From assembly GCF_030384885.1 (NCBI RefSeq), contig NZ_CP128613.1: a stretch of 64,000 nucleotides of DNA. The stretch is one strand, 5' to 3'. Position 1 is the first letter of the stretch. Every line of letters starts with the position of its first letter. A program made the position numbers and the translations under genes. The notes beneath the pieces are model-generated. The model made no database searches, was not told where the DNA came from, and saw only the letters and a program-made list of their open reading frames with translations. Positions 1,493-59,765 of this stretch are shown piece by piece. The DNA is from Escherichia coli. Lineage in GTDB: Bacteria; Pseudomonadota; Gammaproteobacteria; Enterobacterales; Enterobacteriaceae.

Positions 1493-1792
1493 ATGGCGCT
1501 TACAAAAGCTGAAATGTCAGAATATCTGTTTGATAAGCTTGGGCTTAGCAAGCGGGATGCCAAAGAACTGGTTGAACTGTTTTTCGAAGAGATCCGTCGA
1601 GCTCTGGAAAACGGCGAACAGGTGAAACTCTCTGGTTTTGGTAACTTCGATCTGCGTGATAAGAATCAACGCCCGGGACGTAACCCGAAAACGGGCGAGG
1701 ATATTCCCATTACAGCACGGCGCGTGGTGACCTTCAGACCCGGGCAGAAGTTAAAAAGCCGGGTCGAAAACGCTTCGCCCAAAGACGAGTAA
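1493..1792 (+). CDS. ihfA: Integration host factor alpha subunit
   Basis: 99-aa [76 protein letters not shown]..., canonical IHF-alpha/HU fold sequence. Confidence 0.97.
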
Positions 1793-1804
1793 TCTGATCT
1801 AACT

Positions 1805-1834
1805 AAAAAGGCCGCTCTGCGGCCTTTTTTCTTT
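1805..1834 (+). terminator. Rho-independent terminator after ihfA (GGCCGC-TCT-GCGGCC stem plus T-run)
   Basis: aaaaaggccgctctgcggccttttttctttt directly after ihfA stop. Confidence 0.8.
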
Positions 1835-1892
1835 TCACTGTCGAAGAGTCACCGTAAAATCAACGCCATGACACTTCAGCAGAACGGATACC

Positions 1893-8750: not shown

Positions 8751-8772
8751 ATGCACTAGTTCTCTAGTACAT
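8751..8772 (-). promoter_or_regulatory. TrpR operator of aroH promoter (CTAG-containing dyad)
   Basis: minus-strand ATGTACTAGAGAACTAGTGCAT, matching the trp-repressor operator core GTACTAG..CTAGTAC; overlaps ppsR stop codon. Confidence 0.75.
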
Positions 8773-9597
8773 TCGACGACTAAGGCCCATGATATCAAGG
8801 ATCTTGGTGGCAATCTCTTCTACCGAATAATTGGTACTGTTAATCCATGGGATCTGATTCTTACGGTACAACGCTTCCACTTCCGCGACTTCCATCCTGC
8901 ACTGACGAAGCGAGGCATAGCGACTGTTCTCCCGACGTTCCTCGCGAATCGCCGCCAGACGTTCCGGGTCGATAGTCAGGCCGAACAATTTATGCTGAAG
9001 CGGTTTGAGCGACGCGGGTAGCACCAGATTATCCATATCGTCGGCAATAAAGGGGTAGTTTGCCGCGCGGATACCAAATTGCATTGCCAGATACAGACTG
9101 GTGGGGGTTTTACCACAGCGAGAAACGCCGAGCAGGATCACCTGAGCCTGGTCCAGATTGCGCAACGAAATGCCGTCGTCATGGGCAAGGGTGTAATCAA
9201 TCGCCGCAATGCGCGCATCGTATTTATTGAGATTATTAGGGTTAAGGCCATGGGTACGATGAGCAATCGGCGTTGGATCCAGTTTCATCTCTTGCTGTAG
9301 CGGGGCAACCAGCGCCTGAACGATATCCTGGCAAAAGCCTTCACTTTGCAAGATGATGGCGCGAATCTCCGGCAACACGATGGAGTAGAAGACCAGTGGG
9401 CGCACACCTGTCTGGTGATAAATTGCGTCAATCTGATCCTTCACTGCCCGTGCACGGCTCTCATTTTCGACAAACGGCAGCGTAATGCTGCTGATAGTGA
9501 CGGGAAATTGTGACATTACTGCGTGTCCTAATACCTCCGCAGTTATTGCCGTACCATCAGAAATATAAAAAACGTGGCGATCAACAGCATTATCCAT
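8764..9597 (-). CDS. ppsR: PEP synthetase regulatory protein (bifunctional kinase/pyrophosphorylase)
   Basis: 277-aa [30 protein letters not shown]... with P-loop GVSRCGKT; divergent from ppsA. Confidence 0.95.
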
Positions 9598-9827
9598 TTT
9601 GTTCTTCCCGTAATGCAGACATAATTCTATGAAAGCATAAATTAAAAACGCACAGAAGCGTAGAACGTTATGTCTGGTTTATAAAATGAACCTTCAATTT
9701 TATTTTTTATGAAAACAGCATTTCATTTTTACGGTTTCGTTTATACCGATGGTTTATGTGGAAATTGTCGAAGAGAGCAGATTTGCGCAACGCTGGGATC
9801 AGTCTTAAAAAGTAAAAAAATATATTT

Positions 9828-9843
9828 GCTTGAACGATTCACC
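9828..9843 (+). promoter_or_regulatory. Candidate Cra (FruR) site in ppsA promoter region
   Basis: gcttgaacgattcacc (minus-strand GGTGAATCGTTCAAGC), imperfect palindrome TGAA-N-TTCA type, about 90 nt upstream of ppsA ATG. Confidence 0.45.
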
Positions 9844-9929
9844 GTTTTTTTCATCCGGTTAAATATGCAAAGATAAATGCGCAGAAATGTGTTTCTCAAA
9901 CCGTTCATTTATCACAAAAGGATTGTTCG

Positions 9930-12308
9930 ATGTCCAACAATGGCTCGTCACCGCTGGTGCTTTGGTATAACCAACTCGGCATGAATGATGTAGACAGGGT
10001 TGGGGGCAAAAATGCCTCCCTGGGTGAAATGATTACTAACCTTTCCGGAATGGGTGTTTCCGTTCCGAATGGTTTCGCCACAACCGCCGACGCGTTTAAC
10101 CAGTTTCTGGACCAAAGCGGCGTAAACCAGCGCATTTATGAACTGCTGGATAAAACGGATATTGACGATGTTACCCAGCTTGCGAAAGCGGGCGCGCAAA
10201 TCCGCCAGTGGATTATCGACACTCCCTTCCAGCCTGAGCTGGAAAACGCCATCCGCGAAGCCTATGCACAGCTTTCCGCCGATGACGAAAACGCCTCTTT
10301 TGCGGTGCGTTCCTCCGCTACTGCAGAAGATATGCCGGACGCTTCTTTTGCCGGTCAGCAGGAAACTTTCCTCAACGTTCAGGGTCTTGACGCCGTTCTC
10401 GTGGCAGTGAAACATGTATTTGCTTCTCTGTTTAACGATCGCGCCATCTCTTATCGTGTGCACCAGGGTTACGATCACCGTGGCGTGGCGCTCTCCGCCG
10501 GTGTTCAGCGGATGGTGCGTTCCGACCTCGCATCTTCTGGCGTGATGTTCTCCATTGATACCGAATCCGGCTTTGACCAGGTGGTGTTTATCACTTCCGC
10601 TTGGGGCCTTGGTGAAATGGTCGTGCAGGGCGCGGTTAACCCGGATGAGTTTTACGTACATAAACCGACACTGGCGGCAAATCGCCCGGCTATCGTGCGC
10701 CGCACCATGGGGTCAAAAAAAATCCGCATGGTTTACGCGCCGACCCAGGAGCACGGCAAGCAGGTTAAAATCGAAGACGTACCGCAGGAACAGCGTGACA
10801 TCTTCTCGCTGACCAACGAAGAAGTGCAGGAGCTGGCAAAACAGGCCGTACAAATTGAGAAACACTACGGTCGCCCAATGGATATTGAGTGGGCGAAAGA
10901 TGGCCACACCGGCAAACTGTTCATTGTGCAGGCGCGTCCGGAAACCGTGCGCTCACGCGGTCAGGTCATGGAGCGTTATACGTTGCATTCACAGGGTAAG
11001 ATTATCGCCGAAGGCCGTGCTATCGGTCATCGCATCGGCGCGGGTCCGGTGAAAGTCATTCATGACATCAGCGAAATGAACCGCATTGAACCTGGCGACG
11101 TGCTGGTCACTGACATGACCGACCCAGATTGGGAACCGATCATGAAGAAAGCATCTGCCATCGTCACCAACCGTGGCGGTCGTACCTGTCACGCGGCGAT
11201 TATCGCTCGTGAACTGGGCATTCCGGCGGTAGTGGGCTGTGGTGATGCAACAGAACGGATGAAAGACGGTGAGAACGTCACTGTTTCTTGTGCAGAGGGT
11301 GATACCGGTTACGTCTATGCTGAGTTGCTGGAATTTAGCGTGAAAAGCTCCAGCGTGGAAACGATGCCGGATCTGCCGTTGAAAGTGATGATGAACGTCG
11401 GTAACCCGGACCGTGCTTTCGATTTCGCCTGCCTGCCGAACGAAGGCGTGGGCCTTGCGCGTCTGGAATTTATCATCAACCGTATGATTGGCGTCCACCC
11501 ACGCGCACTGCTTGAGTTTGACGATCAGGAACCGCAGTTGCAAAACGAAATCCGCGAGATGATGAAAGGTTTTGATTCTCCGCGTGAGTTTTACGTTGGT
11601 CGTCTGACTGAAGGGATCGCGACGTTGGGTGCTGCGTTTTATCCGAAGCGTGTCATTGTCCGTCTCTCTGATTTTAAATCGAACGAATACGCCAACCTGG
11701 TCGGTGGTGAACGTTACGAGCCAGATGAAGAGAACCCAATGCTCGGCTTCCGTGGCGCGGGACGTTATGTTTCCGACAGCTTCCGCGACTGCTTCGCACT
11801 GGAGTGTGAAGCGGTGAAACGTGTGCGCAACGACATGGGACTGACCAACGTTGAGATCATGATCCCGTTCGTGCGTACCGTAGATCAGGCGAAAGCGGTG
11901 GTTGAAGAACTGGCGCGCCAGGGGCTGAAACGTGGTGAAAACGGGCTGAAGATCATCATGATGTGTGAAATTCCGTCCAACGCCTTACTGGCAGAGCAGT
12001 TCCTCGAATATTTCGACGGCTTCTCAATTGGCTCAAACGATATGACGCAGCTTGCGCTTGGTCTGGACCGAGACTCCGGCGTGGTGTCTGAACTGTTCGA
12101 TGAGCGCAACGATGCAGTGAAAGCACTGCTGTCGATGGCGATTCGTGCCGCGAAGAAGCAGGGCAAATATGTCGGGATTTGCGGTCAGGGTCCGTCCGAC
12201 CATGAAGACTTTGCCGCCTGGCTGATGGAAGAGGGGATCGATAGCTTGTCCCTGAATCCGGACACTGTGGTACAAACCTGGTTAAGCCTGGCTGAACTGA
12301 AGAAATAA
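9930..12308 (+). CDS. ppsA: Phosphoenolpyruvate synthase
   Basis: 792-aa ORF, PEP-utilising enzyme family with phosphohistidine region ([21 protein letters not shown]). Confidence 0.97.
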
Positions 12309-26426: not shown

Positions 26427-26563
26427 CGTGTAATGGCTGCATGAAATAAACAATAAAATATAAATAACATTATCAGCCTGCTGACGGCTTGAAGAGAGTC
26501 ACAGTATCTTGTGCAACATTATTGGAAAGAGTGAGGGGCGAGGTAGCGAAGCGGAAAAATGTT

Positions 26564-26669
26564 AAAAAAAAGCCCATCGTGGGAGATGGGCAAAGACTAC
26601 ACACAGCAATTCGTTGTTTCACTCAGGGGATTTCCATGCTTATAAATCAATATGTTGATTTATAACCGT
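26564..26669 (-). ncRNA. rprA: RprA small regulatory RNA (RpoS translational activator)
   Basis: minus-strand sequence ACGGTTATAAATCAACATATTGATTTATAAGCATGGAAATCCCCTGAGTGAAACAACGAATTGCTGTGTGTAGTCTTTGCCCATCTCCCACGATGGGCTTTTTTTT matches RprA as I remember it, with terminal hairpin and U-tract; located in ydiL-ydiK intergenic region. Confidence 0.9.
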
Positions 26670-32259: not shown

Positions 32260-32360
32260 ACTATTCTTATCGCCCCTTCAAGAGCTAAGCCACTGTGAGT
32301 GCCGGAGATAAGCGCCGGATGGGGTAGAAACCCTTAAGCCTGTGATGCACAGACTTAAGG
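32260..32360 (+). ncRNA. rydB: Candidate RydB-like small RNA locus (boundaries approximate)
   Basis: ydiH-sufA intergenic region; 5' hairpin (gccgg-agataagc-gccgg) and terminator-like hairpin aaacccttaag-cctgtgatgcacaga-cttaagggttt followed by tcttatttct; RydB is known to map between ydiH and sufA, exact sequence not recalled. Confidence 0.45.
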
Positions 32361-39928: not shown

Positions 39929-41341
39929 TTACAGGACGTGAACAGATGCGGTGTTAGTAGTGCCGCTCGGTACCAGTGCACCAGAAACCATAACTACGAC
40001 GTCACCTTTGTGTGCCAGACCGCTCTGCAGAGCCAGTTCTTTACCCAGACGGTAGAAATCATCAGTAGAAGTGATTTCTTTAACCAGCTGCGGCACAACG
40101 CCTTTGCTCAGTACCAACTGATGAGCCGTTTTTTCGTTGGTGGTCAGTGCCAGGATGGTGGCATCCGGGAAGTATTTACGTACTGCACGAGCAGATTTAC
40201 CGCCCTGGGTAGCAACCACGATCAGCGGAGCATCCAGTTTTTCAGCAGTTTCAACCGCGCCACGGCATACTGCTTCGGTAATGCGCAGTTTACGGTTGTC
40301 ATTGTTGAACTCGAGACGGCTGTTCATAACGCGGTCGGTACGTTCGCAGATGGTCGCCATGATAGAAACTGCTTCCAACGGGTATTTACCTTTTGCGGAT
40401 TCACCAGACAGCATTACTGCGTCAGTACCGTCGAGGATGGCGTTCGCAACGTCACCGGCTTCTGCGCGAGTCGGGCGTGGGTTTTTGATCATTGAATCGA
40501 GCATCTGGGTCGCAGTGATAACGACTTTACGTGCACGGATACATTTTTCGATCATCATCTTCTGGGCGAAGATAACTTCTTCAACCGGGATCTCAACGCC
40601 CAGGTCGCCACGCGCAACCATGATGCCGTCGGAGGCTTCGAGGATTTCGTCGAAGTTGTTCAGGCCTTCCTGGTTTTCGATTTTGGAGATGATTTGGATG
40701 TTTTCACCACCGTGTGCTTTCAGATGCTCACGGATTTCGATAACGTCAGAACGCTTACGAATAAAGGAGGCAGCAACAAAGTCTACGCCTTGTTCGCAAC
40801 CGAAGATCAGGTCTTGTTTGTCTTTTTCAGCCAGTGCTGGCAGGGCAATGGAAACACCCGGCAGGTTCACACCTTTGTTTTCGCCCAGGTCGCCGTTGTT
40901 CAGTACTTTACAGATAACTTTGTTACCTTCAATAGCGGTAACTTCCATACCGATCAGACCATCGTCAACCAGTACGGTGTTGCCAACAGACAGGTCGGTA
41001 GTGAAACCTTCATACGTTACCGCAACCATTTCGCTGTTGCCGATAACAGATTTATCAGTGGTGAAAGTAAAGGTCTGACCGGCTTTCAGAGAAACGTCGT
41101 TACCGCCTTCCAGTTTCATAGTGCGGATTTCTGGACCTTTGGTATCAAGCAGGATAGCGGCAGTTTTACCGGTTTTGCTCATCACGTTGCGCAGATTCTG
41201 AATGCGCTGACCGTGTTCTGCATAGTCACCATGAGAGAAGTTCAGACGCATAACGTTCATGCCAGCGTCCAGCATTTTAGCTAACATCTCTTCAGATTCG
41301 GTTTTCGGTCCGATGGTGCAAACAATTTTGGTCTTTTTCAT
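39929..41341 (-). CDS. pykF: Pyruvate kinase I (fructose-1,6-bisphosphate activated)
   Basis: 470-aa frame from internal ATG ([44 protein letters not shown]...); track ORF carries a 72-codon N-terminal extension, which I reject. Confidence 0.96.
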
Positions 41342-41546
41342 GACAGTCTTAGTCTTTAAGTTGAGAAGGATGGGAGAAACTTGCTTTCTGGGCGCACTGC
41401 CGGAAAGCGAATCCGGTATTACGAAAGTGGTGGTGCCTCGCTCTAAGGATAGGTGACATCGAAAAAGCGTGCAGAGGAATGTGTGCTTGTGTCTCAGCCC
41501 AACGTGAGTGCCTGTTTTTGAGTCGTTGAGTTCTACAGTCCAAAGT

Positions 41547-41562
41547 GCTGAAACCATTCAAG
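41547..41562 (-). promoter_or_regulatory. Candidate Cra (FruR) operator upstream of pykF
   Basis: GCTGAAACCATTCAAG, 14/16 match to my recollection of the Cra consensus GCTGAAACGTTTCAAG, about 205 nt upstream of pykF ATG. Confidence 0.45.
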
Positions 41563-41897
41563 AGTCAATTGGCGCGCATTATACGCTGAAATTAATCCAA
41601 AAGGAAAACAAAAACAGCGTTTCAAAAAATATACAACTTGTAAGACAATAAATTGTTATCAAAGATTTAACGTTACAGGGAAAGGGTTACGCAAAAACCT
41701 CGTTGTTTGCGCAACGTCTGGTGCCTGGGTTGTCAGTGTGAGGATAAGTGAGAGTTCATCCGGTGTATAAATACATCATCGCTCAATTGCTACAGTGAAA
41801 ATAATTTATCGCGTTATTTGTCTGATTTTGTTTGGTTTTTGTTTAATTGGTTAGATTGATATATGCTGATAGTTGGCATGATAAATAGGTATAAAGA

Positions 41898-46038: not shown

Positions 46039-46707
46039 ATGTCCTTCACTCGACGCAAATTTGTTCTGGGGATGGGAACAGTAATCTTTTTTACTGGTTC
46101 TGCGTCTTCTCTGTTAGCGAACACGAGGCAAGAAAAGGAAGTTCGGTATGCCATGATTCATGACGAGTCACGGTGCAATGGCTGTAATATTTGCGCCCGC
46201 GCATGCCGTAAAACTAACCACGTCCCCGCTCAGGGAAGCCGTTTATCGATAGCACACATACCGGTCACCGATAACGACAACGAAACGCAGTATCACTTTT
46301 TTCGCCAGTCATGCCAGCACTGTGAAGATGCTCCTTGCATCGACGTTTGCCCAACAGGAGCGTCATGGCGTGATATGCAGGGGATCGTGCGGGTAGAAAA
46401 ATCGCAGTGCATCGGCTGCAGTTATTGCATTGGCGCTTGCCCGTATCAGGTTCGCTACCTTAACCCTGTCACTAAAGTGGCAGATAAATGTGATTTCTGC
46501 GCTGAGTCCCGACTAGCAAAAGGCTTTCCGCCCATTTGCGTTAGCGCCTGCCCGGAACATGCATTGATCTTTGGTCGCGAAGATAGCCCAGAAATTCAAG
46601 CGTGGTTGCAAGAAAATAAATATTATCAATATCAGCTACCTGGTGCCGGGAAACCGCATCTGTATCGCCGATTCGGTCAACATTTGATTAAAAAGGAAAA
46701 TGTATGA
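46039..46707 (+). CDS. ydhX: Tat-exported 4x[4Fe-4S] ferredoxin-like subunit
   Basis: 222-aa frame with twin-arginine signal (SFTRRKFVLGMG) and four Cys clusters (CNGCNICARAC, CQHCEDAPCIDVCP, CIGCSYCIGACP, CDFC...CVSACP). Confidence 0.88.
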   Translation: MSFTRRKFVLGMGTVIFFTGSASSLLANTRQEKEVRYAMIHDESRCNGCNICARACRKTNHVPAQGSRLSIAHIPVTDNDNETQYHFFRQSCQHCEDAPCIDVCPTGASWRDMQGIVRVEKSQCIGCSYCIGACPYQVRYLNPVTKVADKCDFCAESRLAKGFPPICVSACPEHALIFGREDSPEIQAWLQENKYYQYQLPGAGKPHLYRRFGQHLIKKENV

Positions 46708-47489
46708 ACCCGTCGCAACATGCTGAACAGTTTCAGAGCCAGTTGGTGAACTATGTGCCACAGTTCACTCCCGAATTTTGGCCGGTGTGGTTGATCATTG
46801 CCGGACTATTGCTGGTTGGGATGTGGTTGGTGCTGGGGCTGCATGCCTTGCTTCGTGCTCGTGGCGTGAAGAAATCAGCCACCGATCATGGTGAGAAGAT
46901 TTATCTTTACAGCAAAGCGGTCAGATTATGGCACTGGTCGAATGCGTTACTCTTTGTATTGTTGCTGGCAAGTGGGCTGATAAATCACTTTGCGCTGGTG
47001 GGAGCAACTGCGGTTAAAAGTCTGGTTGCGGTGCATGAAGTTTGCGGATTTTTGTTACTGGCATGCTGGCTCGGCTTTGTTCTGATCAATGCCGTTGGGG
47101 GTAATGGTCACCACTATCGCATTCGTCGTCAGGGTTGGCTGGAGCGAGCGGCAAAACAAACGCGATTTTATTTGTTTGGCATTATGCAGGGGGAAGAACA
47201 TCCTTTCCCGGCAACAACACAGTCTAAATTTAATCCCTTACAGCAGGTCGCCTATGTTGGTGTCATGTATGGATTGCTGCCGTTGTTACTATTGACGGGG
47301 CTGCTGTGTCTCTATCCGCAAGCCGTGGGAGATGTGTTTCCTGGCGTAAGATACTGGTTATTTCAGGCGCATTTTGCTCTGGCATTTATAAGCCTCTTTT
47401 TTATCTTCGGTCATCTTTATCTTTGCACCACGGGGCGTACGCCACACGAAACCTTTAAAAGCATGGTCGATGGCTATCACCGGCACTAA
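46704..47489 (+). CDS. ydhU: PhsC/cytochrome-b-like integral membrane subunit
   Basis: 261-aa hydrophobic ORF with conserved His residues in TM helices; ATGA overlap with ydhX. Confidence 0.88.
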   Translation: MNPSQHAEQFQSQLVNYVPQFTPEFWPVWLIIAGLLLVGMWLVLGLHALLRARGVKKSATDHGEKIYLYSKAVRLWHWSNALLFVLLLASGLINHFALVGATAVKSLVAVHEVCGFLLLACWLGFVLINAVGGNGHHYRIRRQGWLERAAKQTRFYLFGIMQGEEHPFPATTQSKFNPLQQVAYVGVMYGLLPLLLLTGLLCLYPQAVGDVFPGVRYWLFQAHFALAFISLFFIFGHLYLCTTGRTPHETFKSMVDGYHRH

Positions 47490-50049: not shown

Positions 50050-50355
50050 TCAGGCGAGTTTTGCCTGATTGATTTGACTCAGTGGCTCATTGACATCGAA
50101 AACTTTGGCGACAACTTCCTCAACGCCGAGATTTTTCAGTCGGGCAGTATGTTTTTCCAGATAGGCAAGGGCGCTTTTTTCATCAGTGAAAAGGTAGATC
50201 CCACCGGCTTCGTGGTTCTTTTCACTTTCTGTCCATACCTTCCACAGAAAACCAGGTTCCTGATTAATCGACTCAGCAAGCGGTTTAAGCTGCTCAGCCA
50301 TTGCGTCGCCAAATGGGCCATTAAAAGCAAAATGAAGTTGTAACAAAGTTGCCAT
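50050..50355 (-). CDS. ydhR: Small Dabb/antibiotic-biosynthesis-monooxygenase-like protein
   Basis: 101-aa ORF; terminator hairpin downstream (aagggcg-gttag-cgccctt). Confidence 0.85.
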
Positions 50356-50462
50356 AGCGATTCTCCTTCTGATAACGCATACGAAGACAGTGTAAATCTT
50401 TTAACGTATTGGATACAGAGAAGAAACAGAGGGAAAAAGGAGAAGACCAGATTAAGAAAATC

Positions 50463-50539
50463 TGGTGCGTCCGAGTGGACTCGAACCACCGACCCCCACC
50501 ATGTCAAGGTGGTGCTCTAACCAACTGAGCTACGGACGC
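50463..50539 (-). tRNA. valW: tRNA-Val (anticodon GAC)
   Basis: minus strand GCGTCCGTAGCTCAGTTGGTTAGAGCACCACCTTGACATGGTGGGGGTCGGTGGTTCGAGTCCACTCGGACGCACCA: 77 nt, cloverleaf-compatible, encoded CCA; copy assignment valV vs valW inferred from gene order. Confidence 0.95.
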
Positions 50540-50543
50540 AGGA

Positions 50544-50620
50544 TGGTGCGTTCAATTGGACTCGAACCAACGACCCCCACCATGTCAAGGTGGTGCTCTA
50601 ACCAACTGAGCTATGAACGC
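50544..50620 (-). tRNA. valV: tRNA-Val (anticodon GAC)
   Basis: minus strand GCGTTCATAGCTCAGTTGGTTAGAGCACCACCTTGACATGGTGGGGGTCGTTGGTTCGAGTCCAATTGAACGCACCA: 77 nt, differs from its neighbour in acceptor and T stems; 4-nt spacer. Confidence 0.95.
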
Positions 50621-59212: not shown

Positions 59213-59253
59213 TCCATTTCACTCCAGACCCTAACTTCAGCTCCTGCAAAATC

Positions 59254-59274
59254 GCAAGGTAAACGTTTGCCTTT
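59254..59274 (-). promoter_or_regulatory. PUR-box-like operator in purR leader
   Basis: minus strand AAGGCAAACGTTTACCTTGC, about 45-60 nt upstream of purR ATG. Confidence 0.6.
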
Positions 59275-59510
59275 ACACACCTTACGCACAACAAAAGTGT
59301 TGCGGTACGCCGGAAAAACGACACGGAGCGTCAGGAAGGGGTCAATGGCCAGTACGCAAATAGTGTAAGCGTGGAATTTTGGCCGATCTTGACGAAAAGG
59401 GGAAGTGGTAAAAACACTTATCATTATAAATGACGGGAGATTTTTTCATCACAGTGTGTAAAAATGCGTAATATCACTTTTTGTGTGGTAATAAAAAAGG
59501 AGAAAACTTG

Positions 59511-59600
59511 ATGAGCACCGACCTTAAATTTTCACTGGTAACAACGATTATCGTCCTCGGTTTGATCGTAGCCGTGGGTTTGACTGCCGCGCTGCACTGA
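59511..59600 (+). CDS. ynhF: 29-aa single-TM small membrane protein
   Basis: ATG preceded by AGGAG SD (aaaaaaggagaaaacttg ATG); encodes MSTDLKFSLVTTIIVLGLIVAVGLTAALH; below the size cut-off of the supplied ORF track. Confidence 0.75.
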   Translation: MSTDLKFSLVTTIIVLGLIVAVGLTAALH

Positions 59601-59765
59601 TTTCCTCTCGAGGGAGCGCGTTCTCCCTCGCATCTCCTTCCTGTTTGTTAGCAAAATGGCAAAAGTGTTTTCTCTTTTTGTTATTTTCATTTTTTTGTGA
59701 TTGCTGTCATGCTTTCGCCACTTTAATGAATATCGCGTAATGACGCGAAGAGGTGGAGATAAGGC

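Follow-up and report, generated by a model that had tools for sequence, protein, structure and literature searches.

Cra (FruR) operators of ppsA and pykF recovered from a 64,000-nucleotide stretch of Escherichia coli DNA

The stretch of DNA analysed here, which we call the window, is 64,000 nucleotides long, comes from Escherichia coli and carries ppsA, the gene for phosphoenolpyruvate (PEP) synthase, next to the divergently oriented ppsR, which encodes the regulatory kinase of the same enzyme; the neighbouring genes on either side are aroH and one for a medium-chain fatty-acid-CoA ligase. The spacer between the two (9598-9929) is 332 nt long and has a GC content of 33.1%, against 49.6% for the window as a whole. 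An earlier note on this DNA had described an AT-rich 332-nt spacer separating ppsA from its regulatory kinase gene, and this description proved exact in its coordinates, both genes being confirmed by their profiles. At 95-100% identity the spacer is present in 5420 of the 5426 complete E. coli genomes, and K-12 MG1655 differs from the strain of the window at two spacer positions only (9612 and 9732). The window also contains pykF, the gene of pyruvate kinase I, whose ATG is at 41341 and which is separated from fumD by an intergenic region of 556 nt. The genes and the regulatory features discussed below are collected in Table 1.

Table 1. Genes and proposed regulatory features at the ppsR-ppsA and pykF loci (window coordinates)
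Feature	Position	Strand	Basis
ppsR, PEP synthase regulatory kinase/phosphorylase	8764-9597	-	NCBIfam NF049928, 430.6 bits, above equivalog cut-off
Cra (FruR) activator operator of the ppsA promoter, GCTTGAACGATTCACC	9828-9843	-	Consensus match, conservation, published position
G+T-tract directly 3' of the Cra box, covering the -35 region	9844-9851	+	Conservation 0.7-0.9; -35 role proposed from the 17-nt spacing to the -10
Predicted extended -10 of the ppsA promoter, TGc + AAAGAT	9866-9874	+	Conservation pattern
Predicted ppsA transcription start	9881	+	Box centre plus 45.5; 7 nt past the predicted -10
ppsA, phosphoenolpyruvate synthase	9930-12308	+	NCBIfam NF005057 and TIGR01418, E = 0, above equivalog cut-offs
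pykF, pyruvate kinase I	39929-41341	-	NCBIfam NF006664, 992.6 bits
Cra (FruR) repressor operator of pykF, GCTGAAACCATTCAAG	41547-41562	-	Consensus match, conservation; -221 to -206 from the ATG
pykF distal promoter, -10 TATAAT at 41583-41578, start 41572 (-231 from the ATG)	41572-41583	-	Match to listed promoter

The RefSeq record of K-12 annotates no regulatory features in the ppsR-ppsA spacer, and Rfam gave no match in this spacer or in the region upstream of pykF. Elsewhere in the window Rfam matches at gathering score were obtained for STnc540 at 1734-1892 (+), RprA at 26562-26669 (-), rydB at 32272-32332 (+) and STnc550 at 59213-59603 (+), as well as, at 50339-50501 (+) and 50466-50620 (-), for HPnc0260, overlapping a tRNA region, plus two tRNAs. 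The ppsA and pykF control regions are free of all of these.

Candidate Cra (FruR) sites were scored by published consensus strings and by the fruB operators, which we read from K-12. On its minus strand the box in front of ppsA reads GGTGAATCGTTCAAGC, and it can be divided as GGTGAATCG·TTCAAGC, that is, into a perfect TGAATCG half and a degenerate distal half. Of the two halves, the one nearer to the promoter is the good half-site (plus-strand CGATTCA, 9835-9841), the distal half resembles fruB O2 minus one T, and the whole box is unchanged in K-12 MG1655, both strain differences falling outside it. The earlier note had called this site a Cra-type palindrome; the type is right, and the palindrome is overstated, as just one of the halves, that towards the promoter, is a good half-site. 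The box upstream of pykF, which reads CTTGAATGGTTTCAGC in gene orientation, is identical to fruB O1 (GCTGAAACGTTTCAAG, read from K-12) at 14 of 16 positions, and to the ppsA box at 11 of 16 in the same orientation and 8 of 16 in the opposite one. A related site with a 14/16 match had been claimed here: the site is indeed present, 206-221 nt 5' of the pykF ATG, but the number does not apply to its comparison with the ppsA site (11/16), and it evidently referred to fruB O1. A full-text literature search for the ppsA and pykF operators as exact strings returned no relevant paper.

For phylogenetic footprinting of the ppsA region we took one genome per species and obtained 80 loci with PpsR of at least 90% identity, all from Enterobacteriaceae. 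The divergent arrangement is present in 78 of them, with about 320-575 nt between the genes, and two loci are too short to tell. When the 79 distinct spacers were aligned, the mean identity to the window was 0.64 and that of the Cra 16-mer of ppsA was 0.949; five 16-mers are better conserved, all of them overlapping the box, and the top-conserved block of the spacer is 9826-9851. The heptamer CGATTCA is invariant (79 of 79 spacers). The distal half is GCTTGAA in most spacers and GCTTACA in 28 of the 79, Enterobacter, Lelliottia, Kluyvera, Leclercia and Silvania being among the latter. If FruR binds asymmetrically, one half of its site should be strong and fixed and the other weak and tolerant of change, as is seen here. 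Several species have enlarged ppsR-ppsA spacers (575 nt in Intestinirhabdus alba, 451 in Buttiauxella sp. B2 and 392 in Siccibacter, against about 330), which implies insertions; in those parts that were examined, these species have an intact Cra box and ppsA-proximal promoter.

For pykF, metagenome contigs were scanned with a DNA pattern for the N-terminus of PykF, which gave 120 loci. Orthologues down to about 86% PykF identity retain the box at an unchanged distance from the ATG (about -220 to -240); below about 85% it is absent. Across 56 distinct upstream regions with a mean of 0.63 it scores 0.969 and ranks first of 385 16-mers, and it varies only at outer positions and at one central base; the TATAAT just 5' of it is conserved as well. 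Both sites are thus conserved in the orthologous promoters of relatives, and each box is the block with the highest conservation in its intergenic region. This conservation means functional constraint and is silent on which protein binds.

The conservation pattern also outlines a promoter for ppsA. The G+T-tract directly downstream of the box would cover the -35 region, and the promoter is without a good -35 hexamer. Conservation of at least 0.9 is found at the TG of 9866-9867, at A9870 (-11) and at T9874 (-7), the remaining positions of the hexamer being variable, from which we infer a promoter of the extended -10 type with its start at 9881. A 49-nt leader would follow from this start, with the Shine-Dalgarno sequence AAGGA at about 9919-9923; the AAAAGGATTGTT ahead of the ppsA ATG is nearly invariant. 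If transcription begins at 9881, the Cra box has its centre (9835.5) exactly at -45.5, equal to the published value: in PMC7897506, with reference to Nègre et al. 1998, the ppsA operator of EcFruR is located at -45.5 and the activation is described as Class I. A generic sigma-70 scan of the spacer yielded two matches against 1.5 expected, neither of them for the ppsA promoter, and its failure to detect this promoter fits with a weak, activator-dependent promoter of the extended -10 type.

A Cra site between divergent genes could also be a shared, bidirectional element that regulates ppsR as well, and joint control of ppsR and ppsA was implied by the title of the earlier note. It would agree with such a role that the genes are divergent, with a spacer of about 330 nt and a layout conserved in 78 species, and that PpsR and PpsA act together. 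However, the Cra box is 231-246 nt away from the ppsR ATG and about 145-215 nt upstream of the candidate ppsR promoters (a -10 at 9629-9624 and the scan match at 9726-9697), the ppsR-proximal half of the spacer has separate conserved elements of its own, and in the literature that we searched we found no report linking Cra with ppsR or with ydiA. We found no evidence for the joint control and regard a regulation of ppsR through this box as quite improbable.

Two elements stand out on the ppsR side. The first is a 17-nt block, TGAAAGCATAAATTAAA (9630-9646; TTTAATTTATGCTTTCA on the ppsR strand), which is conserved at about 0.9 in the 79 Enterobacteriaceae spacers and fills exactly the 17 nt upstream of a candidate ppsR -10 of the TAGAAT/GATAAT type (9629-9624), the expected -35 position of this candidate promoter not being conserved; the block may be an operator placed inside the ppsR core promoter. 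The second is a perfect inverted repeat, ATGAAA-N6-TTTCAT (9709-9726), with arms that are conserved and a centre that is variable in most genera, which is a signature of a dimeric DNA-binding protein. It overlaps the minus-strand promoter predicted by the scan at 9726-9697 (-35 ATGAAA, -10 TAAAAT), and related AATGAAAC half-motifs are seen at about 9685-9692 in other genera. Further copies of either element within the window do not exceed chance. An RNA element in the conserved block of the ppsR leader was considered and rejected (RNAalifold found 0 pairs over 24 species), and neither 9630-9646 nor 9709-9726 has a conserved RNA structure or an Rfam match. It is possible, although on balance rather unlikely, that the two elements are operators of an undescribed transcriptional control, separate from Cra, of PpsR, the kinase that regulates PpsA.

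On the ppsA side, the conserved block might be mainly a core-promoter or UP-like element, or a site of another LacI-family member or of an unrelated factor, with Cra binding as an incidental property. The block does extend past the 16-mer into the T-tract (9826-9851), and SELEX studies report binding of CRP and of PdhR to the ppsA region. Nevertheless, its invariant core CGATTCA is exactly the Cra half-site with the central CG, and no good candidate for the other two proteins appeared in the spacer: the best CRP-like matches (7/10, at 9757-9772 and 9794-9809) lie elsewhere and are poorly conserved, and the reported PdhR box is at 9961-9975, inside the ppsA coding sequence. There, the PdhR-type palindrome TTGGTATAACCAA, in ppsA codons 11-16 (LWYNQL), corresponds to the SELEX site AgTTGGTtatACCAAag listed for ppsA/ppsR (PMC7660256), which means that a PdhR site reported as intergenic is in fact coding. 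In addition, a passage of Lehning et al. cites EcoCyc for the ppsA promoter being regulated by Cra exclusively (PMC5555440). An element of another kind, with Cra as a bystander, thus appears very improbable to us, and a Cra operator remains the preferred reading of the block.

How far the resemblance to Cra consensus sequences carries by itself is a separate matter. With the symmetric core TGAATCGATTCA and up to three mismatches allowed, there are 33 matches in the window against 31.3 expected. The asymmetric consensus RSTGAAWCSNTHHW has three matches in 64 kb against 0.57 expected, and three of 100 shuffles reach that number; the matches are the ppsA box and the pykF box, both perfect, and one within the pykF coding sequence. 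This asymmetric FruR consensus, reportedly Ramseier's of 1995, is said to have been built partly on the ppsA and pykF sites. Since it derives in part from the same sites, the test by matching is partly circular. The third perfect match, AGTGAAACCTTCAT at 41000-41013, is probably a chance one.

Against the published Cra logo GCTGAANCGNTTCA (PMC8085971, PMC5888115) the ppsA box matches at 10 of 12 positions, and 13 sites of the window, on both strands, score at least as high, against about 4.6 in shuffles; the pykF box matches at 11 of 12, a score reached at two sites of the window where 0.1 would be expected. There are 11 locations with a match of 10/12 or better, only three of them outside long ORFs, and two of these three are the ppsA and pykF boxes. 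Among the other matches, GCTGAGTCGATTAA (10/12, minus strand, 50264-50277) lies outside coding sequence, close to two tRNA genes, and GCTGAACAGTTTCA (11/12, 46722-46735) is at the start of the gene of a thiosulfate reductase cytochrome b subunit (46704-47489). Both boxes, then, match the Cra recognition sequence, written as RSTGAAWC·SNTHHW or as GCTGAANCGNTTCA, and for the ppsA site the sequence resemblance alone is not significant. That both 16-mers resemble a degenerate consensus by chance and have no regulatory role is nonetheless a practically negligible possibility: it would account for the background count of the symmetric core and for the 13 sites at or above the ppsA score where about 5 are expected, but it is contradicted decisively by conservation (0.95 against 0.64 at ppsA; 0.97 against 0.63, rank 1 of 385, at pykF), by the agreement of both positions with published promoter architecture and by a published reporter study that used a promoter with a scrambled site and a Δcra strain.

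At pykF the position of the box can be related to a promoter predicted in earlier work. A FruR-associated promoter at -231 is mentioned in PMC2759082, in a passage citing Bledig et al. 1996, and the promoter sequence listed there from that work is matched exactly by the window. In this distal promoter GCGTATAATGCG is conserved at 0.7-0.9, and relative to the start of the promoter the box occupies +11 to +26, a repressor position. At both genes, the site is accordingly placed as the direction of regulation demands, with transcription starts that are either predicted here or taken from the literature. The 5'RACE experiments of Olvera et al., however, detected starts at -34, -80 and -97 and none at -231 (PMC2759082), which makes the repression geometry at pykF less certain. 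For the Cra site of pykF the same authors quote a position 197 nt 5' of the ATG (PMC2759082), a slight discrepancy with the -206 to -221 of the box in the window. The pykF leader also contains long, highly conserved blocks at 41441-41501 (-160 to -100) and 41353-41371 (-30 to -12), ATGTCACCTATCCTTAG at 0.95 being an example, which lie around the -80 and -97 starts of Olvera et al. 2009. These blocks may be additional promoters or leader elements.

We consider it nearly certain that the two boxes are the characterised E. coli Cra operators of ppsA, for activation, and of pykF, for repression. The 16-mer at ppsA we take, from its -45.5 position, to be the footprinted operator of this gene. The sequences, positions, consensus matches, footprints and promoter geometry come from our own analysis; Cra binding, effector release, dependence on cra and the -45.5 position come from the literature. 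There, Cra is described as an activator of ppsA and a repressor of pykF (PMC9948231, PMC5555440, PMC8085971, PMC5888115). A GFP reporter of the ppsA promoter gave 16-fold more signal on acetate than on glucose (PMC5555440), and in that sensor study it was paired with a ppsA promoter carrying a scrambled Cra site, and the wild type was compared with a Δcra strain. In a passage of PMC7897506, which cites Ramseier 1993 and Nègre 1998, FruR is stated to boost ppsA transcription in vitro, and fructose-1-phosphate (F1P) to interfere with EcFruR binding. Conservation, the -45.5 geometry proposed here and the literature agree in supporting the earlier suggestion of a Cra (FruR) site placed to activate ppsA.

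These data and the literature are best explained by the following course of events. At low glycolytic flux free Cra (FruR), a protein of the LacI/GalR family, occupies both sites. At ppsA, bound at -45.5 and directly 5' of a promoter whose -35 is weak and whose predicted -10 is of the extended type, it aids RNA polymerase, in the published mechanism by Class I activation via the alpha C-terminal domain; at pykF, bound just 3' of the distal start (+11 to +26), it would block transcription, presumably in a roadblock mode. When sugar is plentiful, fructose-1-phosphate and fructose-1,6-bisphosphate free Cra from DNA, and ppsA expression goes down and that of pykF up. As the effects of Cra on the two genes are opposite, one flux-sensing regulator sets the direction of the PEP-pyruvate step, to which the divergently encoded PpsR adds post-translational control of PpsA. 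The proposal in the earlier note that opposing gluconeogenic and glycolytic genes are placed under one regulator is borne out both by the literature, with ppsA activated and pykF repressed, and by the footprints.

Cra sites at ppsA and pykF have been known since the 1990s, and their confirmation adds no new biology; the ppsA promoter with its Cra site already serves as a biosensor of glycolytic flux (PMC5555440, PMC9948231). What was recovered is the design in which flux-sensing Cra controls both enzymes of the opposing PEP-pyruvate step, ppsA and pykF. The case also demonstrates that real operators can be picked from raw sequence, with a consensus match that is insignificant alone here, and that phylogenetic footprinting separates the ppsA and pykF sites cleanly from chance matches.

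In comparison with the systems already described, the ppsA box is at the same locus as the FruR/Cra operator of E. coli ppsA (Ramseier et al. 1993, 1995; Nègre et al. 1998, J Mol Biol 276:355), with no difference between them, and the pykF box is at the same locus as the FruR/Cra operator of pykF (Bledig, Ramseier & Saier 1996, J Bacteriol 178:280), immediately 3' of the promoter listed from that work. The canonical Cra sites are the fruB operators O1 (GCTGAAACGTTTCAAG) and O2 (GCTGAATCGTTTCAAT), the cores of which are printed in PMC4050194; the central CG and the half-site TGAAWCG are found in them as in the ppsA and pykF boxes. Of the 11 positions of GGTGAATCGTT, the strong half of the ppsA box, 10 agree with fruB O2. 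The fruB sites, however, are near-perfect palindromes and cooperative repressor sites, whereas the ppsA box has a degenerate distal half and is an activator site at -45.5.
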